64,000 nucleotides of DNA, taken from the NCBI GenBank assembly GCA_951406725.2, contig OX597815.1, positions 121,396,001 through 121,460,000 on the forward strand, in the 5' to 3' direction. Positions 3,568 through 64,000 of the stretch are shown one piece after another. Below the pieces are notes generated by a model, which did not search any database, was not told the origin of the DNA, and was given only the letters and a program-made list of their open reading frames with translations. Within the stretch, counting starts at the first letter, position 1, and each line of letters begins with the position of its first letter. The translations under genes were made by a program, and so were the position numbers. This stretch comes from Octopus vulgaris (lineage: Eukaryota).

Positions 3568-4005
3568 CTCGTTTTTCCAGCATTCATAATCTTCACATCG
3601 TCTTGACTTAACATCCCTCACCGTTTGTCTTTACTGTTTTGTTCTCACTGTCCTGTTTTTGTTACCACTTTCACTCCCCACAAAAAAATCTCAAATTTTA
3701 TTTAATTTGCTTTGCGGGAAGGACTGTTTCAACGTCATTACCTTCGAAACACAGAGTAGAAAAAACAGGGGACAACTGATGATGGTAATGTTCTTTATGT
3801 TGCATGTCTTGTTTCTCTGATCGTTTTTTTTTCGTTGTTCGAAAAAAGGTTCGTTTTCTATGTTTTTGATTTTTATGTTTTCATTTCTCATTGTGTCTAC
3901 GCTTTTTTGATTTCCTGTATCCATACGTGCATGTATATATACATACATATGTAGGTATGTACATATATGTATGAATGTATGCATATATCTATATATTATT
4001 TATAT

Positions 4006-10623: not shown

Positions 10624-10657
10624 TTTCTGATGAACAGCGTTGCTCGAAACGTTATGC
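10624..10657 (+). ncRNA. Minimal type I hammerhead-like motif (PLE pseudo-LTR type)
   Basis: TTT CTGATGA A CAGC GTT GCTC GAAACGTT A; lies in a ~230 bp unit (10540-10770) ending in (TA)n. Confidence 0.6.
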
Positions 10658-10775: not shown

Positions 10776-10823
<48 letters not shown>

Positions 10824-10959
10824 TACTTGGAGGAAACGAAACGACGCAAGGACGCTCAGTCATACAATAATTTAATAAATAAAATATATGCATACATACA
10901 TACATATATGTACGTACCTACATCTACATGTATATATACATGCATATATAAATATATAT

Positions 10960-11480
10960 ACGTGAGTACAGGACACCACAAATAGACGTAGATTTCAACG
11001 AGAAACGAAAACGTAAAAACAAACATGGAAACGGACCTTTTTTTAACAACGAAAAAACGGAGTACAAGACAAACAACACAAGGAAAATTCCCCTTCATCA
11101 GCTGTCCCTAGTTCGACTCCATGCGTGTTTCGAAGGTGAGGACAGAACACGACTCGTCGAACTAACCCTTCCTGCGAAAGAATTAAATAAAATTCCTTTG
11201 CAGAGGAGTAAAAACAAGGAAAGAAAAAAATGTGACAAAAACAGGACGTAAAAACGATACAAATAAAATAACAAAATAAAATACAAAATAAAAATACAAT
11301 TACAAAAAAATACAGTACAAGAAATAAAAACAAACAATGAGGGCCTATTTTGGCCTAGACGAGGAAAGATTTTTAAGAGCGCAGGAAAAAAGCATGTTCA
11401 CTTGTAGGAGGCCGCAAGCGAAAGGAAGTGGTCGCCCGGCTGTGAGAGAGAGAGAGATGGGGTTGACTCTGTCTGTCATT
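10960..11480 (-). mobile_element. (TA)n-anchored non-coding element (family A)
   Basis: Homologous to 3565-3950 and 19130-19640; runs from a (GA)n end to GTCCTGTACTCACGTATATA on the minus strand. Confidence 0.75.
11088..11164 (-). ncRNA. Candidate hammerhead ribozyme with rearranged strand order
   Basis: Minus strand: TAGTTCGAC gagt CGTGT T CTGTCC tcaccttc GAA ACACG catgga GTCGAACTA g GGACAG CTGATGA aggggaa; core intact, helix III 5 bp, helix I 6 bp, added helix 9 bp. Confidence 0.65.
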
Positions 11481-12049: not shown

Positions 12050-13735
12050 AGTATCACTACCTTCTACGTATATTTAGTACTGGCGATGTTTATCTGAGTG
12101 CTGGGTCTTCCGGGTGCTTTGATAAAATGTGGATATCAAGTCGACCCAGTGTGCTTCCATGCTGGTCTTTGGTATGTTGGTAGAGTATGGAGGACTGCTT
12201 TTTGTCGTCATATTGTCTCAAATGTTCGTTTAGTCTCTCCGCAATACTTCTAGATGTCCCCACAGTGTATGTCATGTTCTTGTCTTTACAGGTACCCCCT
12301 ATGCACCTTATCCTGCAGACTACATTTCTAATTTTCTAGTTCTACAGTTAATGGCAGGGTTAATCTTACATATCAGGTAATCCTCAATGGTGCATCTAGC
12401 ATTCTTTACTACTTCTGCGCAAATTCGGTTTGCCAGGTTGAATGGAATGTTTGGCTTTGTGTGTTTAGATATGTATGTATGTATCTATGTAGTGAAGGCG
12501 CGTGGCTTAGTGGTTAGGGCATTCAGCTCACGATTGTAAGGTCGTGAGTTCGATTCCCGGCGACGCGTTGTGTCCTTGAGCAAGACACTTTATTTCACGT
12601 TGCTCCAGTCCACTCAGCTGGCAAATATGTGTTGTACCTGTATTTCAAAGGGCCGGCCTTGTCACACTCTGTATCAAGCTGAATCTCCCTGAGAACTACG
12701 TTAGGGGTACCTGTGTCTGTGGATTGCTCAGTCACTTGCACGTTAATTTCCCGAGCAGGCTGTTCCGTTGATCGTATCAGCTGGGACCCTCGTCATCGTA
12801 ACCGACAGAGTGCTCCTACGTATGTATGTATGTTATGTATTCTAGGCTATCAGATGTATGTATGTATGTATGCGTACATGCATGTAAGTATATATGTATA
12901 TTTGTGTGTGCGTGTGTGTATGCCTTTGTCCGTGTGTGCGTGCTTTGTGTATATATGTGTGTATGTGTGTGCATGTGTATGTATGTATCTATGTAATAAT
13001 ATAGATATAAACTCTTCGAATCAATAAAATACATAATTATGATCTGATGGAGCTCCCTGGCTTTTCAATGTTGAGTTTGGCCTCCTTCAGAGTTTTCCTA
13101 AATCTTCGGACTAGTTCTCCATGGGCTGTGTCCTCTACAAACATCACTCCTTGATATTTGTCGGCCTTGTACCATGTGTTCACCTTGATTGCTTTGTCAC
13201 AAACTCTCTATATCCTATTCCAGTCTCTACTTCTATATCTAGGGCAGGTTTCATTACATATAATGCTATCTAAGTTCATTCTAGCTCCCCTGTATACTGG
13301 AAGCCTATCTTTCTGGTCATATCCAGAGAATTGTATGCGGTGCATGAAGTTCTCTACATGTTCCTTTGTCTCGTAACGGTCGCATAGGGAGGACACGTTG
13401 TTCATTATCCTAATTAATTTTGCTATTAGTATGTTGATTTTCATGTTATGTGACAAAGCTGAGTTTTTGTGAACAACATATTTAGAAGGTATGGGTCTCA
13501 TGTAATAGGAGTGGAGGAGCTGCACTCTGTTGTTCACAGTCTCTAACCAAAGTTTAGTATCAAGGACAGGGAGCCTATTATTAAGCTGCCTAGTGGGGTA
13601 ATCTACAGTTACCTTGATACTTTGGTGGATGGAGTTAGCTATGTGCTGGATGCTCTCCATTATGCTCCTCTCAGTTTCTACACCACAGTTACTAGACTTT
13701 GTCCTAACTAGAATATCAATGTCATACCACACTTA
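12050..13735 (-). pseudogene. Penelope-like element 3' part (RT thumb, Cys-rich linker, GIY-YIG), interrupted at ~12425-13035
   Basis: ORF 13208-13732 (VTVDYP...RLPVLD...YYMRP...NSALS...FSGY); 13040-13180 WYKADKYQGVMFV; 12090-12400 C-x4-Y-x2-C-x7-CRTR, then YTVGTSRSIAERLNEH...ILYQH. Confidence 0.85.
12493..12816 (+). mobile_element. tRNA-derived SINE (family S3), well preserved
   Basis: A box TGGCTTAGTGG, B box GTTCGATTCC, then TGTGTCCTTGAGCAAGACACTT conserved SINE body motif. Confidence 0.9.
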
Positions 13736-14414
13736 CAGTAAAGCAAATCACTTGTGGATTGTTCAGCTAAGGATTGTTTAGGTTTTCTCTCCCACATATA
13801 TAAAACATACAAGGGTGTATTTTTCCCCTCTGAAGATATTATGTTCAGGATATATGAATTTAATATTTAATTAATTAACTGAGTATTAATTGAAACAGCT
13901 GTAAGAGATGATGATTGATTTGTTCTTAATAATAAAAATTATAACTTTCCAATCTCCATTTTCATTTCTTCTCTTTTATATATATGTGTATGTGTGTGTG
14001 TGTGTATGTGTGTGTGTGTGTGTGTGTGAACATCCATTGACTAAGTTGCACAAGCAACGAAAATTTTGGAAATTTTTCGGTGGGGGAGAAAAAATATAAA
14101 TAACAAATAAGTGGAAATTGAACAGGTGAGTGTCAGAATTAAAGCAGTATGAATCTCCCAGGACAACAATACACACACACACACACACACACACACGCGC
14201 GCACACATAATTGAAATAGGTTTTTAAGGAAAAAAAAAAGAGCATACGTTGTGTAATTAAGTAATTGCACTGTTGAAAGGTACGCTGGTGTGGTTTTTGT
14301 TTGAAAAGAAAATCTCTTCGCGGACATGTTGAGATAGAAACAGAAGCATTGCAGTCGATGTAATCGATAAGTCCAGGCTTTGTGTCTGTAAGTGGAAAGG
14401 ATTATTTAGCAATA

Positions 14415-14835
14415 GGATCTTTTCGGTTTGACCGGCAGTTTTTTCTAGCGGCGTCATATGAAATTGTCACCCATAATTATGACCCTAGTATCGATCTAAT
14501 GCATTTCAATCTGTCTTAGGGTTAGAGTTAGGGTTAGGGATGGGGGGAAGGGTATCTTTTTTTCTTTAGAAATGTAAATAAACCCAATCTATTTCTTAAA
14601 CGAGGGACATATTCATACGGCACAGAATGTTTTCACCTCAATAGACGTCATTGATTGGTTGAAATTGCAGAAATTGAAGAAAAAAACAACAAATATCTTT
14701 CAAACTATAGAATTTTCTCAATAAAGCCAAGAGAAAAAGATGTTTTATAAACACATTCTACCAGTATACGAAGTTTAAAAGTGTTTAGTTACGTGGAAAT
14801 TATTTGAAAAAACTGCCGGTCAAAGTGAAAAAACC
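14415..14835 (+). mobile_element. MITE with ~30 bp TIRs and internal TTAGGG repeats
   Basis: GGATCTTTTCGGTTTGACCGGCAGTTTTTT / AAAAAACTGCCGGTCAAAGTGAAAAAACC; TA on both flanks; second copy 39565-40010. Confidence 0.85.
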
Positions 14836-17095: not shown

Positions 17096-17590
17096 GGTAT
17101 GTAGAAAAATACAACATGGACAAGAACGTATAACTCTTAGAAGACGATACAATAAACACGGACAGGACATTCGAAACCCTCAGTCTTCAGTCAAGAACCG
17201 GATCATCGTAGTAATTTCGGCTGATTAATCTTGAGATTACTAGATCACGGCCAGCCCTCCAAGAAAAACTAAGCAACGAGCATTAGAAAAACTAAGCTGG
17301 GAGCGTAGATTTCCTGGAAGAAGGATCGAATGCATACGGACACCAGGACAGCAAAAGGGACGAATATAAAAAAACAAAAAATAATGGAATACAGAAACAT
17401 GAAATACAGAAGCATTAACGGTGAAAACAACAACAAGTGTCTTACGACTGATAACAAGCAAACAAATTTTTTCTCTGGCGCAAGGAAAGGAGCCTTATCG
17501 GCGATGCCTATAGCGGCGGACGAAAAACAACGATGTTAACACGACGCTGGTCAGAAGCTGAAAGGCAGATTTCGGCCAGCAGTCACTATG
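17095..17590 (-). mobile_element. (TA)n-anchored non-coding element (family B)
   Basis: Lies between (TA)n and (TG)n; 17095-17220 is homologous to the arms of 61940-62195. Confidence 0.7.
17180..17252 (-). ncRNA. Candidate hammerhead ribozyme with rearranged strand order (family B)
   Basis: Minus strand: GGCCG t GATC TAGTAAT C TCAAGA ttaa TCAG cc GAA ATTACTA cgat GATC CGGT TCTTGA CTGAAGA CTGA. Confidence 0.65.
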
Positions 17591-18947: not shown

Positions 18948-19051
18948 TTATTTAAAAGCAGCAGAAATATAAGAAAAGCTGTTATCCAGAGTTTCATGTT
19001 CATGAAACTCTGAGTAACAGCTTTTGCTATATTTCTGCTGCTTTTAAATAA
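18948..19051. repeat. Near-perfect ~50 bp-arm palindrome beside (TA)n
   Basis: TTATTTAAAAGCAGCAGAAATATA...AGAGTTTCATG tt CATGAAACTCT...TATATTTCTGCTGCTTTTAAATAA. Confidence 0.9.
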
Positions 19052-19129
19052 CGCATATTACTCTACCTCTGGTATTTGAGTACTCTTTTTTCCACCTTGT
19101 TTCACATTCATGTACTTACTCCGGTATCA

Positions 19130-20147
19130 ATGAGAGACAGAATGGAAAACAAGACAAATAAACAAAGAGAACGACCCTCCATCAGTTGTCGGCTGTCTGA
19201 GAATTCAACGACAATATGAGTCTTCAAAGACAGTTGCTCTCAAAAATTCCGAAATAAAATTTAGGATTTATGGAGGGTCAAAGTTGGGAACAAAAACAGA
19301 ACAGTGGAGACATACAAGGAAACCGAACGAAAACAAACATGGAGGGTTGTTAGACCAGAATGCGAAGAAAATAGTGAACGCTGGGAGAAATATTTTCTAT
19401 GAAAAGAGAAAAGATAGAAGAGAGAGAGAAAGAAAACGTCCAGCCCTTTGAATGTCCGTGCAGGAAAAGAAAGATGGTCACGCGAGGAAAAGAAAGATGG
19501 TCGATGGTCACGTGTGAGCAACGAGAGAGAGAAAAAGAGAAAGAGGGGGAGAGAGAGAGACAGGTAGAAAACGCTGAAGAGGAGAAAAAGGGAATTAGAG
19601 AAATATGGGAGGAAACAGTACAGAGTAGAGTCACATGAAAAAGGTTAAGATAAACTGACTAGAAAATGGATGCGTTCAATCAAATAATAATATACAAATA
19701 ATATATATCATCCATCTTTCTTTTCCTGCACAGACGTTCAAAGGCCTTGACGTTTTCTTTCTCTCTTTTCTATCGTTTCTCTTTTCAAAGAAAATATTTC
19801 TCCCATGTTCACTATTTTCCTCTCGTTCTGGTCTAACGACCCTCCATGTTTGTTTTCATTCGGTTTCCTTGTATCTCTCCACTGTCCTGTTTTTGTTCCC
19901 AACTTTGACCCTCTGTAAATCCCAAATCTTATTTTAGAGTTTATGGGAGCAACTGTCTTTGATGACTCATATCGTCGTTGAATGCTCCAAATGAGGAGTA
20001 GATAGACAGCCGACAACTGATGGAGGATCGTTCGCTGAGTTTACTTGTCCTGTTTTCCATTTTTTCTCTCGTTGTTAGAGTATTTAACTCGTTTGTTTTT
20101 CGTATTTCATGTTGTTTACACAGTTGATGACGTCCTGTACCCATATA

Positions 20148-20229: not shown

Positions 20230-20277
<48 letters not shown>

Positions 20278-20344
20278 ATGAATTATTTATATTGTTATTT
20301 AATTGAACTCCACCCATCCATTTCCAAGTAAGTTTATATATATA

Positions 20345-33634: not shown

Positions 33635-35286
33635 GCCGGCAGGCGAAATTTTTTTCCCACTAGAGTTTCGGACTCCAGTAATGAACTCATTTGCATACAA
33701 CCAATCAGAGCTCACCTTGACCTTGTTTTCAAGTTAACAAAGGTTGGCGTTCAAAATGGCGACCCCCGATTACCATGCGAATCTTGTATTGAACAACGCA
33801 AAAGATGAATCTCATTGTGCTGACCGTGACGATGACTGCATGGAGTCGAACGATCAGAAAAATGAAAATGATGGAGTTGACTGCGAGGATCTGGAGATTT
33901 CAGACAGTGAACGCGATGATGTGACAAATACACGGCTAGAAAATTTACACTTGCAACGCTCTCTTCAAAATAAATTGATACACGGCACAATTTAGGGAAT
34001 TGGGATCTATTCCATCTCAATCACAGATTTTTTAATTAATTTTTTTAAACTAATTTTTTAAAACTAGACAGTTTGAAACTTCGAATACTGGTAGTATTTC
34101 TCATGTAGAACACGGTTTACTCTGAACGTTTTTGACAAAATATCGTATTTTAGAAGTTATTTCGTATTAAAGTTGTTGTATTTGGGTAATTTCAACCAAT
34201 CAACGACGTGTATTCGGTTGAAGAAAGCTACTGCCGTTTGCGATATTAATCAAAGAGGAACAACTTCTGAGTCATCTCAACTAAATGTTACCACTTTGTT
34301 CGAAGAATCAACGCCATCGAAGAATCAACACCAAGAAGGACACGCGGTTGCACATCAAAATCAAGTGCTGAGAATGGAAGTGACCCAATAATCAATGGGC
34401 TAAACAAAGCTGTTTTTTCTTTACAGCAAAGTTATGTTCAAGACAAAGAATTCCTTGGGGGACCAGGGAAAAAATTCATCAAGCAACTTCCGGAACAGAT
34501 ACTGCGTTAGCTTCCACGCTTCATTGCTTTGTTCGATATTCTGGTGTGACACATGTTCTTGGCAAGAAAAAACGAAAATCTCTAGTAATAGTGCGATTTT
34601 CCCCCCACAAAACGAATATTTCTAGTCAGTATGAAGACAATTGATGTGCAACCAACTGCAGCATCCAGGAGAAAGATGGTTGGTGGTGGCAGAAATTGCA
34701 TTGGTGCTGGCAGACCGTTGAAGGATTGTATGAAAAGTATGAAAGGAAGGGTTCCGTTCAGCTCTCAAATTATGTCTAGACGCAAAGCCCAACAAAACAT
34801 TCATGAATTGTTAAAAACAACCAGTTTCTTGAAAAAACACACTCTATCAAGTAAACTCAAGACGAAGAACGGTGCTGTAAGTCGACCGATCGCCAAGTTA
34901 TGCCTGATTTTAGGAGACAAGTAATTAAATAGATTTGAATCTATACCTATTATCGGATTTTGTTAGGGCCCCATATGGTAAAGATGTGGATGGGGAAAAT
35001 GTGGGTAGAGGGTGATGTGCTTGTAACCCTCTCCCCTTACTGTTTTACAAAGTAAACAACAACACAAATAACTATGCAGAGGTAGCCATGGTTGAAACAA
35101 GAACAACAACCATTATTAAAATAGAAAAAAGCATGGTCATTCCTTACCCAAATGACCTTATCTTATCGTCCATCACTTGTTATGTGCTCATAAATTAGTT
35201 TGATAGTTGAGCTCTGATTGGCTGTATGCAAATGAGTTCATAACTGGGGTCCGGAACTCTCGTCAGAAAACAATTTCGCCGCCGGC
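33635..35286 (+). mobile_element. DNA transposon derivative with ~80 bp TIRs
   Basis: 33635-33714 mirrors 35208-35286; acidic short ORF 33744-33995; PFSSQIMSRRK in ORF 34631-34924 is weakly piggyBac-like; superfamily unresolved. Confidence 0.75.
34001..34230 (-). mobile_element. Fragment of a MITE related to 14415-14835, nested in the TIR element
   Basis: Minus strand shares ACGTCnTTGATTGGTTGAAATT and CTACCAGTATnCGAAGTTT; ends in GGGATCT. Confidence 0.55.
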
Positions 35287-35749: not shown

Positions 35750-36883
35750 CACACATGTATTTAGAGGATTACAACTAAACACATATATTATCGAGCGTAT
35801 CACTCAGGCTTGCGAGGAAGGGATGGCCTCCCTTTGCAAATACTCCAAGGACACAGATATTGTGTCTAGAGCCAGCTAGAGACGAAGATCTCTTGGGGGC
35901 TATAAAGCCACAGTAACACCCCCTCCCCAATGTGGTTAGCCATGATAAGATGGCTTCTATACTTTACATTATCGAGCGATTACTGTTTCAATCTCATTCT
36001 GAGATTTAATTATACATATATTATCATTTATTACATTACATTCAATACGTCATACGTTATTCGTTTCGTTATCCATTATCTTTTCTTTCACATTTCAGAT
36101 ATAACGAAGACCCATTTTTATCATTGCTTCAATCTACGTAAATAAAGTGTTTGTTGAAAGTACAAAGAGATGTCAGACTTATTTATGACAAAAAAAAAAG
36201 GGTCTTCACTATACCTGAAATGTGAAGGATAAGATAAGATGACAGATAACGATACGAATAATGTATGGCGAATTGAATGTAATGTAAAAAATCATCATAT
36301 ATGTGTATTTAGTTGTAATCTTCTAGTATTCCTGATGTGCCATGCTCAGAGGCGTTGGACGATCACAGACGTCTACACACAGCAAGTTTCTGTAGCCAAC
36401 TGATAAGCTCATCGAAAATTCTTTTTGTCTGTCTGTCTATCAGCCTCTCCCCGCCTCTCTCTCTCTCTCTCTTTCTCTTTCTCTCTCGTTGCCAGGTTCT
36501 TCCTTTCGGTTATGTAGTTCTCCATCCAGTGTTCAAGGTTTTTTGTCTCCTCGTATAAAGTTTAATGAACTTAGCCTGTTGCTTCTTCTTTATTTTAAGT
36601 TTCTTGGTGCTTTATATTCGTCTCAGGACTTCACTGTTATTCTATCTGTATAAGATGTATTCAGTATTCAGTCAAGGAACCACATCTACTGCATCATTCA
36701 TGAGCCTTTACACTTGTTTTCCTTTCTTTCTTTTTCTTTCTCTTTCTTTCTTTTCTCTCTCTCTCTCTTTTTTTTTTTTTTTTTTGATGTTTGAATTCAC
36801 ACAGCCACTTGAAAATATATACGTTTGATCTCACAGACAGAACTTCGACCTAGCCAATCATTGACTTAATTAGGTATTTTTCC

Positions 36884-38221: not shown

Positions 38222-39246
38222 TGTAACAAATAAATTAGAGTAAGAAAAGTAACGGCTTTGTTTCATTGTTACAAAATAAGAAACAGCTTCGAGTTGTACA
38301 AAGTATTAGTTTTAGTCCAGTAGTCCATTTCGTAGATAGTTAAGTTTATCTGGGAGTGACAGCTAGAAGACGGTTGGAAGAAAGAAAGAGAAAGAGTAAA
38401 AGAATTTACCTCTCTGGACTGACAGGTAGACAGGTTAAAAGTTGTGTAGTTACGCACTGACGATTCATACCAAAGTGCCCCTTTTGTCCAAGGAGCCAAG
38501 CAAAAACTGTAGAACCGAATTTGGCCTAGATCGGGTTAAACAAAAGATTTTTCGTTTGTTATCTGCCTTGATCCAAGTTTGACTTGAAATAGTCACAGTT
38601 TAACAGCTGACTCGCATAAATCTTTTGTTAATATTGAAGAAAACTTTATACTGGGTTTCGAATCTTGGTTAAAAATCTAAGAAGCAATTCGGTACATCCC
38701 TCTTTCATTTAGTGAGTTTGTCGAAAAATGAAAGAAAGAAAATAACAACAATAGGAAAAAATTGCAGATTTGTGCATTATGCGACAATTAAACAATATTC
38801 TGAATTGTGAATGCCGAGTGTATAGGGTTCACAAGGCCAGAAAGATCGTAGGTATCAGGAGAGAGAATGAGGCGATGTATGCGGGAGAGTAGGTACTTAT
38901 TTCAGTGGGTCCCAATAGAGTACAATGCCACTTGTGTCAGAACTTGCAATCTGAGCTTCGTGCAGTCTCGGTTTAGGGGCAATGTTGAATGAGCGTGCGC
39001 GTGATTCAGTAGCATCCTTTCGTTCTGAGCAGCAATTGGAATTAATTAGAATGGAGTGTGGAAAACCATCGGGACCGCAATCCACTGTTCCTGAAATTGA
39101 AATCCTCAACGATGAATCAATCTTGGAGGAATCCTAGAATAACACCAAATTAGCTGAATCACGAGACAAGATTCTTCAGTGGTTGGCATGGCGTTATGAA
39201 TTTATACACGTGCGAAAATTGTAATTCACCATGTTACCTTACTACA
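38222..39246. mobile_element. LTR-like repeat; part recurs at 47135-47280
   Basis: TGTAAC...ACTACA bounds; shared AGTTGTACAAAG...AAGAATTTACCTCTCTGG block. Confidence 0.45.
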
Positions 39247-39415
39247 GATAACTCACACTTACCGGATCTTTTCGGTTTGAACGGCAGTTTTTAACATAAT
39301 TTCTAGGTAACTAAAAAATTTTAAACTTCGTATACTGGTAGAATGTATTTATAAAACATCTTTTTCTCTTTGCTTTATTGAGAAAATTCTATAGCTTGTA
39401 AGATATTTGTTGTTG
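39245..39415 (-). repeat. Perfect 171 bp inverted duplicate of 39859-40029
   Basis: Base-by-base comparison by eye found no mismatch. Confidence 0.9.
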
Positions 39416-39564: not shown

Positions 39565-40010
39565 GGATCTTTTCGGTTTGAACGGCAGTTTTTTTTTTTT
39601 AGCTGTGTCATATGAAATTGTCACCCATAGTTATGACCCTAGTATCGATCTATTGCATTTCATTCTGTTTTAGGGTTAGGGTTAGTTAGGGTTAGGGTTA
39701 GGGTTAGGGGTGGGGGAAGGGTTAGGGATTTTTTTTCTTCACAAATGTAAATAAACCCAATTTGTTTCTTAAACGAGGGAATATTCATACGGCACAGAAT
39801 GTTTTTACCTCAATAGACGTCAGTGATTGGTTGAAATTGCAGAAATTGAAGAAAAAAACAACAACAAATATCTTACAAGCTATAGAATTTTCTCAATAAA
39901 GCAAAGAGAAAAAGATGTTTTATAAATACATTCTACCAGTATACGAAGTTTAAAATTTTTTAGTTACCTAGAAATTATGTTAAAAACTGCCGTTCAAACC
40001 GAAAAGATCC
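39565..40010 (+). mobile_element. MITE with TIRs and internal TTAGGG array (same family as 14415)
   Basis: GGATCTTTTCGGTTTGAACGGCAGTTTTT / AAAAACTGCCGTTCAAACCGAAAAGATCC; TTAGGG repeats 39670-39727. Confidence 0.9.
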
Positions 40011-41073
40011 GGTAAGTGTGAGTTATCTGGAAGCAAGGGCGCAGAAAGTATGGTCTATGTTACATAATTCAAAAAGACATCCGACGTGCGCTGAGTCGGG
40101 AAAAGAGAGCTAAGTAGACAGAGATACGGAAACAAATCAATGAAAGCATGAATATTAGGGTGCATGTGTATAGCTAGATGTAGGCATGCGTGTATGCATG
40201 TATTTATGTATGAACATTGCTTTTTTTAAAAATATAGAATAGCGCAGCAAGGATTAATTAACCCTGCGAAAAATTGCAAATATTTACGAGAAAACATGTA
40301 ACGAAATCCGTGCAAAATGAACAGAGTACGATACGTGTGCATGAAAAATATGCTATGCAAGCTGCCAGAGAAAATGAGACATCATAAAGAAATGTATGCA
40401 CGTGAATTACTCGTTTTCGCAGAATGAATGCCGCTTTAAAATTGAACATAATTGTGTTGTTGGGTAACGAACGTGCCATCATGTAAACAAATAAAAGTTT
40501 GTGTGACGGAAATTATAATTAACAGAACGAAATGAAAAGTAAACAAAAGAAGGAAATAAGGAACGACAAATTTGAATAGATGGAGTGTTCAATGCTTCTC
40601 ATGTGAAACAAAAATCAAGCATGTGTCAAGAAAGAGATTTTTGAGAGTCTATAAGATTCTATTCGCAGAAGGGTCCGTGTAGAATTGTGGAGAAAATTAA
40701 AGATCTGAACTTCGGGACTCGGCTGTCGAAAATGTCGCTTGCAGGTCTCCATAGTTTCTGCTGCGATGTACTTCTGTACAAGACAGGTATTTGTTGGTGC
40801 AGATTCTAAGTGTGGGTTCAAGGGAGATGTAGGCTTGCAGAAATGCAGTCTGGTCGTTCTGCGAGGTGCATCGCTATCGGCCGCATTTTTCAATTTTTAA
40901 TTTTTTTTCGTTGGTAGAACATGTATTGTCGCCTGCTGGAAGCTGAACTCCGGAATTTCGATGAGTAACTGCATTTTTTTTTCCTTACTGATTCACGGAT
41001 TGTAGCCTTGTAGAGACTGTTACAGCAAGTAAAAGGATGCATATACATTTCTTCACGGCAGGATTTAAGGCGA

Positions 41074-43667: not shown

Positions 43668-44329
43668 AAGTAGCGGATGGCTACTGACATTAAGCTTAAG
43701 GATTATATAATATACAAATATTAAGAAAGAATTAAAGAAAGAAGGACTCATTATATTGAATGTTATCGATAGTACCGAGTGGAAATAGGAGATGCTGCAG
43801 TTCCTATACACGAGCTGCCACTACACGCAACAGTTGTTATATAATGGTGTGCAAGATTCCGTAGTAAAACCAAGGGAGACGTTATGCCAACACTGCTAAA
43901 ACTGGTTACCCTGAACAAATGAACATTGAACGAGCATATCAACCGATTACTTGGCTCGACAGCCATCTTACATAAGGATAGAGTGCCGTATAAAGAGTGA
44001 AGTTCAAATACATTTTCCATGGGCGGACTTTCTGGAAATCCTGAGATTTCGCTGTTGCCGAAACTGCTATTTCAAGCCAAACGAAGTGACGCTTTGAAGT
44101 CCACAACAGTAGCAGGAGGCGGTAATACCTGAACGTTGGAGACTCGCGCACTCAAAATAATTGAAAGTATAAAATCTGCTGTAAAAGTTCTGTATTTAAA
44201 TTCCTCCTTGGAAGTATTGCCGCCTCCTGCTACTATTGTGGACTTCAAAGCGTCACATCGTTTGGCTTGAAATAGCAGTTAAATCTGCCAGCAGGACATT
44301 TCGAGTCGAGTATTTGCCAGTTCTTCTTC

Positions 44330-52715: not shown

Positions 52716-55133
52716 CCACATATACTCGACTATAAAACGTCTTGCGCCCCGACTTAAAGGTTCAAATCGGGAATTTTTATGATTGACCCGACTATAAGTC
52801 GCAGCGGCCTTTTTGATGTTGGAGAGCAAAGTTCGATTAGGAATCGCGCCGACATAGTTGTTATTCGGCAACCGAGCTTTCAGTAAGCTGAAGGTGATTT
52901 ACAACAACTGTTTGCCCATTAAGTCCATGCATTTTAGAAACCGTTACACTTTTACCCTTTTACTTGTTTCAGTCATTTGACTGTGGCCATGCTGGAGCAC
53001 TGCCTTTTAGTCGAGCAAATCGATCCAAGGACTTATTCTTTGTAAGCCTAGTGCTTATTCTATCGGTCGTTTTTGCCGAACCGCTAAGTTACGGGGACGT
53101 AAACACAGACACACAAACATATACACACACGCATACATACATACATACACCCCCCCCACACACACACATACATACGACAGGCTTCTTTCAGTTTCCGTCT
53201 ACCAATTCCACTCACAAGGTTTTGGTCGGCCCGAAGCCATAGTAGAAGACACTTTCCCAATGTGCCATGCAGTAGGACTGAACCCATAACCATGTGGTTC
53301 GTAAGCAAGCTACTTACCACGCAGTCACTCCTACGCCTATAATGTTCATAATTTTATCCTTGATTACGCTAGTTGACTTGTTTATTTTATTGCGACTAAC
53401 TGCCTCGATACTTTCCCTTTACTGTTTGCTTTATGTCTTTCATTATAAGGACATTTTTGCAGCAACTGACACACAAAACCATGCAGTCATACATGCTACG
53501 ATTGGAAAAAATACAATAAACTGTTTTAAATTGTAAGGAAGTGTATGATACATTGTGACAAAAACCGGAAGAATAAACGAAGGAAGAATCGAATTATACT
53601 AATCACCACTTTCATCGCCACTTTCACCATATAACTAGTAAAACTCCCCTATTGTGATGGTCTCGTTGTCTGATCTTCATTAACTGATGAAGCACTGGGC
53701 CTAACATTTCTTGCACGGGCGAAGCCATTATATAGTTCGTCGTCTTCCGTACCATCCATGGAATTTGAGATCCCACACTTCAAAACTGATTTAATCACAA
53801 ATTTACTCAGTATTTCAGCTCATGAATCTGACTTAAGGCAAGGGCGTTTAAAGTTCCCAGCTTTTGTCATTTTCTTGCCACCATTAATCATCCATTCATT
53901 CCACTTGGCATTCATGTTCACTTTAAAGGCTTGTTCACCGACACGTCGAGTGGCTAAAGTACAGATGTTCATCCACCTGGAATCACAGCTTTGTAGTCCC
54001 ATACAAGAAGCAATTTTGAATTAGGCATAGCCCCTGGGCGCTTGAAGCACACGTCGTTTAACTAGTTTATCAATGCGGTTTCATCCACCCACCCTTTCTC
54101 TTGAACATACACCACTGTGCTCTTCGGAAACTTCTCTTTTGAGAAAGTCTTTCTTTTGAAAACAATAGCCGAGGTAAGTTTCGTGCCGTCAGCCATACAA
54201 GCCAAAATTGCGGTGAAGTGGGCCTTGTCGCTCCCCGTAGTTTTTACTGCTGACTGTCCGAGTTTCAACTACATCGAAAAGAAAAAGGGGGTGTTTTGAC
54301 CATATTACAGATTGCTTCCAAGGCAAACTCGTGGCTCTTTCGTACGTCTATTACAGACCGATGGAAAGAATCAATTTTGCCCTCTACGTCGGCGGGTAAT
54401 TTCTGCGCGATATGAGCCCTCTGTCTCAGTGTAAGATTGTGGTGTTTCATAAACCTCGTACACCAACCAGGGGATGCTTTAAAGTCGGATATACCATGTT
54501 CTTTAGTAACTTGGGGAGCCCGCAATCTAACGATGTTTCTCGTGGCGACAAGTCCATTCGTGCGTAGTTCAGTCACCCAAACTCTCAAAATCGTCTCCAT
54601 CTCATTGGGACTCATTTCTATCCTAATTTTGTTTAATGATTTGATGTCAACGGATTTCTTTTTCTCTTCTTTCAAACGCCAATCTCCGACCATTTTTTCT
54701 GAGACCCTATATTCTCTTTCTGCAGCTCGATTCGAATGCGACTTCGCGTATTCAACAACTTTCAGCTTGAAAGTGATATCGTACGAATTCCTCTTACTCG
54801 TCATGTTAACAAATAACAGGGCGTCGAATTAAAAGAAAGACAGGTACGGTACAAGCATTAAACTCACTTTTTAAAAATTAATTGTTCATTTCCTACTAAC
54901 AAAAGTAAAAAAATATATAAAGAAATATCTAAAGATCGTCTTCCGTGTACGACTCGGCTTCGGAATTAGAGATTCGGATTTTTTCGGTTATTCCAAGTGT
55001 CGGAAATTCAGACGTGGCTTGTACCCAGAAAATATCTGAAGATACTTTTATAAGATGCGCTAATAAGTCGCACCTCCAACTTTAAATGAAAATTTCAGGA
55101 AAAAAAGTGCGATTTATAGCCGGGTATATACGG
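52716..55133 (-). mobile_element. pogo-superfamily transposon (POGK-like: Brinker DBD, CENP-B HTH, DDE), decayed
   Basis: ORF 54265-54804 (KRNSYDITFKLKVVEYA...NRAAERE...FKASPGWCTRFMK); KTTGSDKAHFTAILACMADGTKL; KWNEWM...TKAGNFKRP; TIRs CCACATATACTCGACTATAA / TTATAGCCGGGTATATACGG. Confidence 0.9.
52949..53338 (-). mobile_element. SINE family S1 nested in the pogo element
   Basis: Reverse complement of 21884-22355. Confidence 0.9.
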
Positions 55134-58618: not shown

Positions 58619-59909
58619 TCATTAGTATATATATTTAAAAGAAAAGGTGTTTCTCTGTGTGTTCTGTTACGCATGCCCAGTGGTACACATTAACTGGTTA
58701 TAACGTTTTCCACAGTGTCCACAGGTGGACACTGTGGACAACCTTACGACCGCTGTTTTTTTCCGATCTGCACATAAACTACCAAAACCTGAACTGGCTG
58801 TGCGAAAGTGCCATATTAGCTCCCAAAAACACATTTGTTGCGAAACTCAATGAAGACCTACTGCGAAGCCTTCCTGGAAACCTTCACACCTACAAGTCTG
58901 TGGACACTGTTGTGGACCAAGAAGAGGCCGTTTATTTTCCCACAGAATTCCTCAATTCCTTGGACCCCCTCCGGACTACCGCCTCATCAGCTGCACCTCA
59001 GAATTGGGGCTCTGGTCATGCCGCTGAGTAACCTGGAGCCACCACGTCTGTGCAACAGAACGTGGTTAGTGGTAAAAGAATGCGCTGCCTCATATTATTG
59101 AAGCAACAATTCTTACGGGTTGCGGCATCGGAGACGTCTTTATACTCAGGATACCTCGTACTCTATCAGCGAAGCAATGCCCCTGTCTCTTGCGTCGACT
59201 TCAGTTCCATGTCCATCAACAAGTCCCAAGGCCAAACACTAACATCGACAAGCTTCCATTTAGGCCAACCATGCTTCTCGCACGGCCAATTATACGTCGG
59301 ATGTTCAAGAGTCCGATAACAAAAACAAAAAAAAAAACCTTTTCGTGTTTGCCCCGAAAGCCAAAACGGAAAATGTCGTCTACCATGAGGTACTGTAGGC
59401 CGTCCAACATGACACAGCTTCCCTGCCGAACCGGTTTATGGTGAGTGAGTACTATTGTTGCCATTCTTTCAAAATTACCTGTTTTTCTTAAGTCTTTTTT
59501 TTTTATTTTGTCCTGTACAGCTTCTCAATCTCCTTGCAGATGACTTGAGTTTTGGCATCACTGCACCCACTGCTTTTCATGTGAACGAAAAAGGACGCTT
59601 ATACCTGTGAACAGTTTACAATCCTTTTCAGGGCTATTGTGAGAACGATAACACGGCCCTTTTCAGGGTCACTTTACATTCAATTGTTGCACTCCCTGTG
59701 AATCTCTTGTAGCCTCTCCAAGGCTTTTTACCTTGTTGTTACTACTTTATTTATGGTCTATGGGAAAAATCACTTCGTTCTCAATGTCAATGTTTGTAAC
59801 TTAACGCAAAAAATATTCAAAGAGATGTACAACAAAAAAAAAATGGTAGAACCTATTAAGACCCTTGCTGAGTATTTAATAGCCGAGCAATGCCGGGTAC
59901 TGCTGCTAG
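58619..59909 (+). mobile_element. Internally deleted Helitron with PIF1-like helicase remnant
   Basis: AILAPKN...FPTEFLNSL, GLPPHQL, LCNRT, SINKSQGQTL, FSHGQLYVGCSRV; 3' hairpin CCGAGCAATGCCGG and CTAG|T; 5' boundary approximate. Confidence 0.85.
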
Positions 59910-59998
59910 TTAGTAATATATTTATGTATTTCATCCACAAAATCCTGGGTTACTATATTTCACAAGGGTTTTTGTGGTTTCTTTACATTATATGTGTG

Positions 59999-60030
<32 letters not shown>

Positions 60031-60054
60031 TGTATGTATGTATGTATGTATGTA

Positions 60055-60179
<125 letters not shown>

Positions 60180-60439
60180 AGCAATTGCAGCTTCGAAGGA
60201 AAACAAAAAAAAACCGTTAGATTCACTTCAAATATTTTGACACAAATTAAGTTTAAATGTTGAAGTGAATCTAACGGTTTTTTGCGTGTTCTTAAATGGC
60301 TTACAATCATCTTACGCGCTGCAATTGTTTTTGTTTCAGCACACGATCTGAGATCAAGTTACTTGCTGTGCAAGTTCAACTCCGTAATTTAATTTTCATT
60401 TGTGTCAGAATATTCGTTGCTCGACCGGTATTACAGACG

Positions 60440-61530
60440 AACTTTATTCGGGACAGACCAGATTTAACTGACAGAATATTTCATATGAAACTTAGGGATC
60501 GCTTACATGATAATGTTTTGGGAGAGGTTGCAGGGTACATGTGGACTATAGAATTTCAAAAAAGTGGACAACCCCATTGTTATATGTTGCTCATATTGAA
60601 AAAAGATCCAGAACATTTTGATAAGTTTGTTTATGCAGAACTTCCAAATCCACAAACACAACCAATTCTGTTTGAACATGTCACCAAAATCATGCTATTT
60701 GGTCCATGTGGAAGAGATAAACACAATGCAACATGTATGGTGGATGGGAAATATAAAAAACATTTCCCAAGAGACTTTCAGGAAATATTTTACACAGTTA
60801 TAATGGCTATCCATTTTACCCAGGTCGAAAGAATTGTTTTACATTTGCAAAGTCTAATGTTGAATTAGATAATTGTTCAGTAGTACCATATTCCCCCTTC
60901 TTTTTAGTTAAATATGGAGGTCATTGTAATGTAGAGATATGTGCATCTATAAAATCAGTTAAATATATTAGCATATATATTCATAAAGGTCATGATCGGG
61001 TGACAATCAATATTAGCGGACAAACCAATGCACAACAACACACAAAGATAAAATTGAAGATTATATTAACGGTCGTAATGTATCCTCACCAGAAGCAGTC
61101 CGGGGGATTTTAGGGTTCAAATTACATGGCTCATATCCTGCAGTCAAACAGCTTACAGTTCATTTACCCCAACAGCAATACATTTATTTTAATGACAATG
61201 ATGATATTGAACATGTTATCCACACACATGACAGGTCCACTCTCATGAATGGAAAGCGAGTTAACCGGGAATCACCAGCTAACTCATCTGCACATACATT
61301 ACTCTATACTGATTTCCTTGAATTTTACACATGAGATAATAATGAGAAAATGTGCCATCTCAGAAAAAGTAATACACACTCAATTGGGGGTATCAACTTT
61401 GTATCACTAAAGGAACAAGAGCAATTCTGCGAGCTTTGCTATATAATATTCCTGGAGCTACATCATTGGAGGCTGCAATGAAACTGGGTTTAGCACACGA
61501 TGACCGTGAATACTATCGGACAATGGAGTT
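60440..61530 (+). pseudogene. Helitron Rep (HUH) domain remnant
   Basis: DRPDLTDRIF, TIEFQKSGQPHCYMLL, AELPNP, GPCG; next frame GHCNVEICASIKSVKYISIYIHKGHDR. Confidence 0.9.
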
Positions 61531-61681: not shown

Positions 61682-61782
61682 TATAAGCGAGAATGAAGCA
61701 ACAAGAATGGATAGGTTTTTAGTGTTTTTGAAACGATTGTACTAAAAACCTATCCATTCTTGTTGCTTCATTCTCGCTTATA
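61682..61782. repeat. Perfect 42 bp-arm hairpin, 17 nt loop
   Basis: 61682-61723 is the exact reverse complement of 61741-61782. Confidence 0.92.
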
Positions 61783-61939: not shown

Positions 61940-62195
61940 TATAATACAAAAATGGGACAAGAACGCAAAACATCCGGACAGTTAGGTGATACAAAAATGG
62001 GACAACAAAACATCCAGAAAGACAATACACAGAAAACAAAGACGGGTCAATCGAAGTTTTTTTTTCCTCAGTCAAGTACCAGATTATCTTCGCAATTTCG
62101 GGTGATACTTGACTGAAGAAAGAAAACCTCGAATGACCCGTCCTTGTTTTCTTTGTATCGTCCATCTGGATGTTTTGTTGTCCCAATTTTGTATT
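61940..62195. mobile_element. Foldback of a family-B-like element between (TA)n tracts
   Basis: Arms ~61990-62081 and 62103-62194; partial duplication at 61944-61980; GAAATTGC...ACTTGACTGAAGA as at 17180-17220. Confidence 0.8.
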
Positions 62196-62370: not shown

Positions 62371-62579
62371 ACCGCATGTGTATCGTTGGCGATTTTCTTT
62401 CTCCGTCTTCCCTTCCTTGAACCATTCCTTTTTCTATGTTTCTGACGAAGTGCTCCGCTCGAAACGTTAAATCCTCCTTCTTTCTTTCCTTTCATGAGCG
62501 TCTAATAATACTTATACTTGTTCCACATCCTCGCGTTGTTGTGTGATTTCTCTTTGTTCATGATTGGATAAACTTTATA
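62371..62579 (+). mobile_element. ~210 bp PLE pseudo-LTR-like unit with minimal hammerhead (62438-62472)
   Basis: GTTT CTGACGA A GTGC TCC GCTC GAAACGTT AAAT; near-identical copy at 63615-63820. Confidence 0.75.
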
Positions 62580-62951
62580 TCTCTCTATATATAAACGGCA
62601 GTTTGTCTGTGTGTGTTTCTGTGTGTCTGTCAGGTTGTACCCTCACCCTGACCACGGCTTTCAACCGATTCTGATGAAACTTGACACACACATAGCCCAA
62701 TGTCATAATTCCAAACTAACGCAGCGAAAATTTTGAAAAGTTCCCCCAGTTCTGAAAAACATCGATAAATTCGACATGGAGTCGAGAATCAGAAACACAA
62801 ACCACAGACTGTCTAGGGGACGCAACTCGACCTTTTTAACTAAAAAAAAATTTACCATAATTTTTTTTTCCATTTTTTGGCTATAACTCTCTAAAAATGC
62901 TTTATAGTTATTTCCCTTACAAACCCGAGCAACGCCGGGCGATACTGCTAG
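62580..62951 (+). mobile_element. Non-autonomous Helitron
   Basis: A|TC 5' end with TATATATAAA, 3' hairpin CCCGAGCAACGCCGGG then CTAG|T. Confidence 0.9.
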
Positions 62952-63528: not shown

Positions 63529-63614
63529 AATTTATAAGTAAGGGCAAAAGAAAAAAATTCTGATGCCAAAATATGCCGAAAATGGACACAACGTCAATAA
63601 CCATGTAATATATC

Positions 63615-63820
63615 CGCATGTGTATCGTTGGCGATTTTCTTTCTCCGTTTTCCCTTCCTTGGACCTTTCCTTTTTCTATGTTTCTGGCGAAGTGCTCCGC
63701 TCGAAACATTAAATCCTCCTTCTTTCTTTCCTTTCATGAGCGTCCAATAATACTTATACTTGTTCCACATCCTCGCGTTGTTGTGTGATTTCTCTTTGTT
63801 CATGATTGGATAAACTTTAT
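63615..63820 (+). mobile_element. Second pseudo-LTR-like unit, hammerhead core mutated
   Basis: CTGGCGA...GAAACATT at 63684-63710. Confidence 0.75.
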
Positions 63821-64000
63821 ATATATATAAAGCGAGCACTAAGCCACTTCTCTCACTTTACAAGAGCTTTTCGTTTCGAATCGCACGTGTCTCGAGGTGT
63901 GCTAGAGAATTTCTATTTTGAATATATTTGGAGTACTTAGTTGTGCTCGTGGCTTAGTGCTCGCTTCTTCCATGAGTATGAGTAAGTATTTCACTTATTT

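Follow-up and report, generated by a model that had tools for sequence, protein, structure and literature searches.

The inverted repeat pair at 19125–20077 of the window (the whole 64,000-nt stretch of DNA analysed here) appears to be the 3′ end of a Penelope-like element (PLE), most likely of the Naiad type, whose typical member would carry a non-circularly permuted hammerhead built from four blocks; we put the probability of this reading, with the window copy dead, at about 0.68. The strands of the motif pair and covary between copies, the majority of the family has an intact core, and the window copy has decayed. In the proposed order the 5′ strand of helix II comes first, followed by the cleavage-site block (S), the GAAA block (G) and the CUGANGA block (C). 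The interaction helix, a hinge and helix III would form a central hairpin, whose loop of about 20 nt would contain the cut site and GAA together with a single strand from each of helices I and II. At the hairpin base, the flanking sequences would supply the missing strands, that of helix II on the 5′ side and that of helix I, together with CUGANGA, on the 3′ side, which would mean that the backbone is opened between A9 and G10.1.

Motif strands and the proposed detached helix II

The right-arm copy (copy D) and its strands are listed in Table 1. The first-pass annotation had placed a set of helix strands at 19953–20033, including a 1-nt spacer before helix I, and every one of them lies where it was placed, as does the helix I strand TTGTCG of the left arm. 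Block S contains U16.1–A17, and the cut is predicted after 19971. The hammerhead core is incomplete in both arms: the right arm carries G12C and A9G, and the left arm carries A9G and has lost GAAA through a 16-nt deletion between 19198 and 19199, seen in the arm alignment, which takes out AAA-ATGAG (the GAAA/helix III strand) and bears out the earlier remark that this strand is missing. Consensus hammerhead core positions include both G12 and A9 (PMC3088659), and pair 1.2–2.2 is also broken, in agreement with the view that two core substitutions have probably inactivated the copy. By its sequence, the two-armed copy at 19125–20077 is a dead, non-functional hammerhead.

Table 1. Coordinates of the arms, related copies and motif strands in the window
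Feature	Position	Strand	Remarks
Right arm, 5′-truncated copy of high-copy non-coding repeat (pLTR/3′ UTR-like)	19712..20077	+	
Left arm, inverted copy, 3′ end outward	19125..19477	-	CTGATGG at 19185-19179
Spacer, upstream continuation of left-arm unit; minus strand pyrimidine-rich	19478..19711	-	includes contig loose ends before 19712
Inverted copy of element tail within spacer, before left-arm continuation	19650-19708		
Tail ending CCAAGTAAGTTTA before (TA)n	20276..20337	+	
Copy A, other sequence family, intact core, four-block layout	17172..17260	-	G10.1 17256, C17 17235, G12 17218, C3 17190
Copy B, intact core with U17, four-block layout	11083..11175	-	G10.1 11171, U17 11146, G12 11131, C3 11101
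Copy C, related to B and D; lacks block S, retains blocks G and C plus the helix II strand upstream	3712..3795	+	
Copy D, proposed detached helix II 5′ strand GAGCA, G10.1 first	19947..19951	+	
Copy D, interaction helix 5′ strand CTGTCT ('extension' of the first-pass annotation)	19953..19958	+	
Copy D, block S	19966..19977	+	helix III 5′ strand CTCAT 19966-19970, A17 19971, helix I 5′ strand TCGTCG 19972-19977
Copy D, block G, with helix II 3′ strand TGCTC	19983..19995	+	CAAA 19988-19991 (G12C), overlapping ATGAG 19991-19995 (helix III 3′)
Copy D, interaction helix 3′ strand AGACAG, then 1-nt spacer (C)	20004..20009	+	
Copy D, block C	20011..20023	+	helix I 3′ strand CGACAA 20011-20016, CTGATGG 20017-20023 (A9G)
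Copy D, rival helix II 5′ strand, one extra A before	20025..20033	+	stability like that of the upstream strand only in family-majority sequence

A full-core scan over all block orders gave two matches in the window (A and B), both in the order S-G-C, and none in 40 shuffles; this order differs from the circularly permuted types I, II and III. With up to two core substitutions allowed, and with spacing limits chosen after the copies were known, three three-block matches were found in the window (D, 17235− and 11146−), all with a perfect upstream helix II, while 8 of 60 dinucleotide shuffles contained one three-block match and none of the 60 contained one that also had helix II. The five bases before GAAA pair perfectly upstream, G–C first (5 bp), in each of the four window copies where this strand survives: GGCTG/CAGCC in A (offset −38), GAAGG/CCTTC in B (−40) and in C (−28, a deleted copy), and GAGCA/TGCTC in D (−41). 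As background, a perfect 5-bp upstream partner is present at 5 of 154 C-GAAA sites, two of these being A and B themselves.

Pairing was counted over helices I, III and upstream helix II of A, B and D, the same window copies from which the structure was derived, and 47 of 48 cells are Watson–Crick; at least two pair types occur at 14 of the 16 positions (helix I 6/6, helix III 4/5, helix II 4/5), whereas controls slid by 1–3 nt gave only 8–19 Watson–Crick cells out of 48. These counts confirm the earlier suggestion of a third covarying set of helices. The helix II strand lies 0–1 nt before one strand of the so-called extension, and the other extension strand stops 0–1 nt before helix I, thus indicating that the extension connects helices I and II at their distal ends, as the type-SGC interaction helix does.

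We consider it unlikely that the motif is a plain type-SGC hammerhead, in which helix II would come right after CUGAUGA, an additional A occupying 9.1, and the complement found upstream would serve as a switch or anti-ribozyme strand that restrains it. In the family D majority, GGGU/GCUC plus four more pairs would give such a helix −5.2 kcal/mol, with one extra A needed, against −5.4 kcal/mol for the upstream helix; family D alone is thus not decisive on the choice of helix II. An extra nucleotide at 9.1 is also usual in PLE hammerheads (PMC4209133), and copy B permits GGGG/CUUC, although this contiguous helix is weak (0.0 versus −4.6 kcal/mol upstream). In copy A, however, the sequence 3′ of CUGAAGA offers no partner for the bases before GAAA, whether 0, 1 or 2 extra nucleotides are allowed.

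Two further pairings were considered and dropped, namely a helix II formed directly 3′ of A9, GAAA being preceded by a 2-nt YC bulge, which fits A, B and C, and pairing of G8/N9 into helix II, since G12 and A9 are restored in the family majority and the upstream partner fits all copies. Nested folding of five copies gave unremarkable stabilities (z −0.98 to +1.24), as expected for a pseudoknot, and other folds were preferred for A and D. No more copies were found within the window by nhmmer, and MAFFT misaligned copy A. A search of Rfam at E ≤ 5 gave no hammerhead family among 150 listed of 172 matches, which were microsatellite-driven. A metagenome pattern scan yielded 66 loci, of which none reaches 4 bp in both helix I and helix III, and three (two identical) have an upstream 5-bp partner; these loci are chance matches and serve as a negative control only.

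Core of the family majority

The first-pass annotation had proposed building a consensus of the subfamily and asking whether GAAA and CUGAUGA return, the contrary outcome being a consensus that also reads CAAA and CTGATGG. Contigs of four public sequencing runs (three organism labels, four studies) were aligned to 19700–20140 at a likeness of at least 80%, giving 8911, 8890, 4752 and 1326 matching contigs per run. With depth summed over contigs, which is not copy number, position 19988 is G in 553,198/596,622, 428,355/464,846, 38,151/40,288 and 12,415/13,004 depth units (92–95%), and position 20023 is A in 146,418/148,770, 218,978/221,927, 18,046/18,247 and 6,499/6,530 (98–99.5%). The pile-ups give alleles per site, not haplotypes, and on this basis the family majority regains GAAA and CUGAUGA in all four runs; the contrary outcome is absent. 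Position 19973, a C in the window copy, is T in 98–99% of depth in all four runs, which mends helix I pair 1.2–2.2. Among 40 listed of 47 rows, no variant site falls within helix III, the interaction helix, 19947–19951 or 19983–19987. The family is clearly abundant and has an intact majority core; the window copy is decayed.

The inverted pair and its carrier

The window is AT-rich (GC 0.30–0.44) DNA of animal type with many microsatellites, and presumably resembles octopod genomes. Self-comparison aligned the two arms over 369 columns at 84.8% identity (E 1e-118); the inverted pair with arms of about 340 bp reported earlier is thus real, with arms that are slightly longer (Table 1). The right-arm element extends past 20077 to GTCCTGTAC at ~20140, followed by (TA)n, and the 3′ ends of both arms face outward and abut (TA)n. 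Copy B is followed by the same ending as that of the tail downstream of the right arm, CCAAGTAAGTTTA(TA)n, at 10830(−). Just before (TA)n, the tail ends in CCAA/GTAAGT, a word like a 5′ splice site (20324–20333(+) and 10821–10830(−)); PLEs have introns in their pLTRs.

The arms mismatch at 42 of 358 aligned columns, including 23 transitions, 12 of them in CpG context. Of 25 family-majority sites, 17 show the majority allele in the left arm, 6 the right-arm allele, and 2 a gap or third base. Two right-arm alleles that are rare in the family (20023 and 20077) are common to both arms, which indicates that one template, already A9G, gave both arms, and thus that a template with a broken core was still copied.

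The shared rare alleles would also suit an inverted pair that arose as a MITE or by fold-back duplication at the locus. Instead of a Naiad, the carrier could then be, for instance, the Neptune-like element at 13732–12063 or a stand-alone retrozyme-like unit. Such origins seem rather unlikely to us, although less so than the plain type-SGC hammerhead. An ORF remnant of the Neptune-like element shares the strand of copy B and lies ~600 nt upstream of it, but microsatellites separate the two. None of six 9–12-nt motif words of the window copies occurs within the published Naiad hammerhead motifs consulted, a further point for a different carrier. The relatives B and C, however, are present as single arms, and outward 3′ ends on (TA)n, with one arm 5′-truncated relative to its partner, are as found in PLE insertions (PMC8557442). 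The question bears on the carrier and not on the layout of the ribozyme.

Naiads have (TA)n targets and often an inverted 5′-truncated copy plus tail (PMC8557442). A (TA)n target, 5′ truncation, an inverted adjacent copy and a tail are all present here, and these features are common to other EN+ PLEs too. According to the window ORF list, no ORF adjoins the arms. A tblastn search of the window with three PLE proteins gave no Naiad ORF or RT core match, only the Neptune-like remnant (12063–13732(−)), an RT thumb followed by GIY-YIG whose RT part is 39–43% identical to three ENA proteins. The remnant is broken at ~12500–12880 by an insert that resembles a tRNA-derived SINE. ARAGORN found no tRNA, and the PLE proteins had no Pfam annotation. 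The inverted pseudo-LTR arrangement put forward earlier fits published PLE insertions (PMC8557442, PMC4209133), but there is no ORF that would link the family to a particular PLE clade. We read the locus as an old inverted two-arm insertion of a PLE 3′ end (pseudo-LTR), most likely Naiad-type, where the Naiad assignment would follow from architecture and target rather than from homology.

Other inverted sequences occur in the window. Palindromic (self-complementary) elements lie at 18948–19051, 36007–36311, 44062–44280, 61686–61778, 61989–62194 and 2138–2637, and one palindromic element is 70 nt from the left arm. A 171-nt inverted repeat (39245–39415 / 39859–40029, 100% identity), related to 14411–14831 and 34042–34222, is a young insertion, in inverted form, from a different family. 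ORF fragments at 58639–60868(+) and 54265–54828(−) presumably resemble the Rep/helicase of Helitrons and a DNA-binding domain of pogo type.

The same layout in Naiad consensi

Naiad PLEs were reported to be without canonical hammerheads and stems, with a 'half core' in eight of them (annotated 'HHR_core' / 'HHR_half_core'; Craig et al. 2021, PMC8557442). We read the published consensi (PMC8557442, File S5) by eye and unscripted, a procedure that may miss words split between lines. It covered places 15–44 of 62 for CTGATGA, 4–33 of 43 for CTGAAGA, 2–16 of 23 for CTGACGA and 2–16 of 25 for CTGAGGA, plus the first two places of the first three words, so that the counts are lower bounds. At least 11 of the 54 consensi, from five phyla, have the S-G-C layout: Naiad_Obim, Ovul, Amil, Aacu, Anas, Plae, 2_Movir and EuTe, together with Beroe, Clytia and Euprymna, these last three (near parts 8, 9 and 25 of the file) named by file order. 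CUGANGA words in ostracod and spider Naiad 3′ ends gave no confident parse and were left out of the counts.

A perfect upstream helix II of 4–6 bp, G–C first, can be drawn by eye in 9 of these 11 consensi, for example GACACC/GGTGTC, GGCTCC/GGAGCC, GGCCCC/GGGGCC, GGGGA/TCCCC and GACGCC/GGCGTC; the exceptions are Aacu, with one mismatch, and Euprymna (by file order), with one mismatch and a G–U pair. In the Beroe consensus (by file order) helix I is only 2 bp. Four or more pairs after A9 were seen by eye in none of the 11, which argues further against the plain type-SGC hammerhead and for a helix II strand detached upstream. Both Naiad_Ovul and the Euprymna consensus (by file order), given as half_core in PMC8557442, show the layout of the window family by eye. 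Naiads further resemble the window family in the 3′ UTR location, the (TA)n targets, the inverted 5′-truncated copy, and core halves at an unusual distance and in an unusual order (PMC8557442). Some of the ribozymes that Naiads seemed to lack are probably explained by such a four-block hammerhead. At least six nematode consensi (File S5 near parts 13–16) contain, by eye, a complete type CSG hammerhead with contiguous helix II.

Proposed mechanism

Cleavage is predicted after H17, and transcripts of tandem elements would be processed, as has been proposed for other PLE hammerheads. In family D, the hinge (19959–19965 / 19996–20003) places AGUA opposite GAA, an arrangement that presumably resembles a loop E or bulged-G motif; the hinges of Naiad_Ovul and Naiad_Obim we take to resemble a canonical kink-turn. 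By eye, the hinge is 0–3 nt on one strand in several families (Acropora, Plae, Movir and EuTe); the flanks are attached through 0–3 nt, and arm length varies freely, helix III being 5–13 bp long. Because such short hinges make folding within one molecule look strained, the flanks of one copy may capture the loop of a second copy, to which we give about even odds. In the γ-shaped hammerhead fold, helix III is coaxial with helix II and points away from helices I and II (PMC4209133); a single molecule would thus need a sharp fold-back, which two copies would avoid. In such a two-copy enzyme, one pseudo-LTR would contribute the cut site and GAAA, and the other CUGANGA and the helix II strand. This model fits the dimers proposed for PLE hammerheads (PMC4209133).

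One could also imagine that the motif is a conserved non-cleaving 3′ signal derived from a hammerhead, acting for instance in the binding of reverse transcriptase or in the dimerisation of RNA. An A9G template gave both arms, the one-molecule geometry looks strained, and several Naiads have no such motif in the published consensi consulted. Moreover, hammerhead cleavage is dispensable for insertion by another PLE in vitro (PMC11167929), which fits the copying of the A9G template here. However, the core nucleotides, U16.1–A15.1, H17 and G10.1–C11.1 are kept while the helices turned over completely between families, a pattern expected of catalysis and not of a binding site, and we regard a non-cleaving signal as improbable, more so than any other alternative discussed here.

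The four-block hammerhead may extend well beyond the window family. Many Naiads, in ctenophores, cnidarians, acanthocephalans, crustaceans and cephalopods, might carry an active seventh layout, opened in block C at A9/G10.1, as a two-copy enzyme that would cut only tandem or paired transcripts and interconvert with the nematode CSG form by moved chain ends. We offer this generalization tentatively, its chances being somewhat below even.

Comparison with known hammerheads

Type-SGC hammerheads are known only from metatranscriptomes and cleave in vitro at 0.007–0.19 per minute (Eckert 2023, PMC10085705). No non-circular permutation is given there for known organisms' genomes, with the exception of one bacterial GCS candidate. 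The window family shares with type SGC (HRIMA-1 motif and variants) the order S, G, C, the full consensus core, and a fourth helix that links helices I and II at their distal ends (PMC10085705). This interaction helix is 4–10 bp in the window copies, and the linker between helices I and II is TTAAT, TCA or TTGAA (3–5 nt) versus typically 3 nt in type SGC (PMC10085705). In type SGC, helix II follows CUGAnGA, whereas in the window family the helix II 5′ strand and one interaction-helix strand would stand at the 5′ end. In strand order, the four-block layout is an SGC ribozyme circularised and reopened between A9 and G10.1. The window family is furthermore a high-copy repeat in an animal-type genome, whereas the cited work does not report type SGC from genomes of known organisms.

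Block C, that is, CUGAnGA with the adjacent helix I and II strands, was assumed to be indivisible (PMC10085705). This assumption appears to fail in the window copies: copy A has no pairing 3′ of CUGAAGA, and the upstream partner is found in A–D. In PLE hammerheads, an additional conserved nucleotide lies between 9 and 10.1 (PMC4209133), which suggests that the backbone can leave the core at this point. Within the mainly open-access literature consulted (including 10.64898/2026.07.22.740005, PMC13725137, PMC10162972 and PMC3088659), non-circular hammerheads are not reported in Naiads or animal genomes, and a helix II strand detached from CUGANGA is not described; the four-block hammerhead is thus apparently undescribed. 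If true, it would break the premise of the published six hammerhead permutations that CUGAnGA is inseparable from its flanking helix strands, and non-circular permutations, so far confined to anonymous metatranscriptome contigs, would be placed at high copy number in named animal genomes. Such a hammerhead would also explain why standard descriptors missed hammerheads in Naiads, which are among the most abundant invertebrate retroelement clades, and would imply that descriptor-based ribozyme surveys have overlooked a whole class.

The window also contains two conventional minimal type I motifs, at 10627–10655(+) and 62442–62470(+), each with CTGAYGA, an extra A, a short helix II and the GAAACGTTA palindrome; 62372–62595 is repeated at 63614–63831 with 94.6% identity. 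In canonical PLE pLTRs, minimal type I hammerheads were reportedly also the subject of Lunse et al. in 2017. With these canonical motifs (Cervera & de la Pena 2014, PMC4209133), the window family has in common the location in PLE terminal repeats, G10.1–C11.1 and the proposed dimers. Pairs of motifs on opposite strands are 100–700 bp apart in canonical PLEs versus ~800 bp here, and the canonical motifs are circularly permuted with a tiny palindromic helix III, whereas the window family has a pseudoknot and a long arm of helix III.

Type CSG, described in print from two metagenomic sequences (Eckert 2023, PMC10085705) and complete by eye in the nematode Naiads above, has the same cyclic order of blocks. 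Its chain opens outside the core, with helix II directly after CUGANGA, whereas that of the window family would open between A9 and G10.1.
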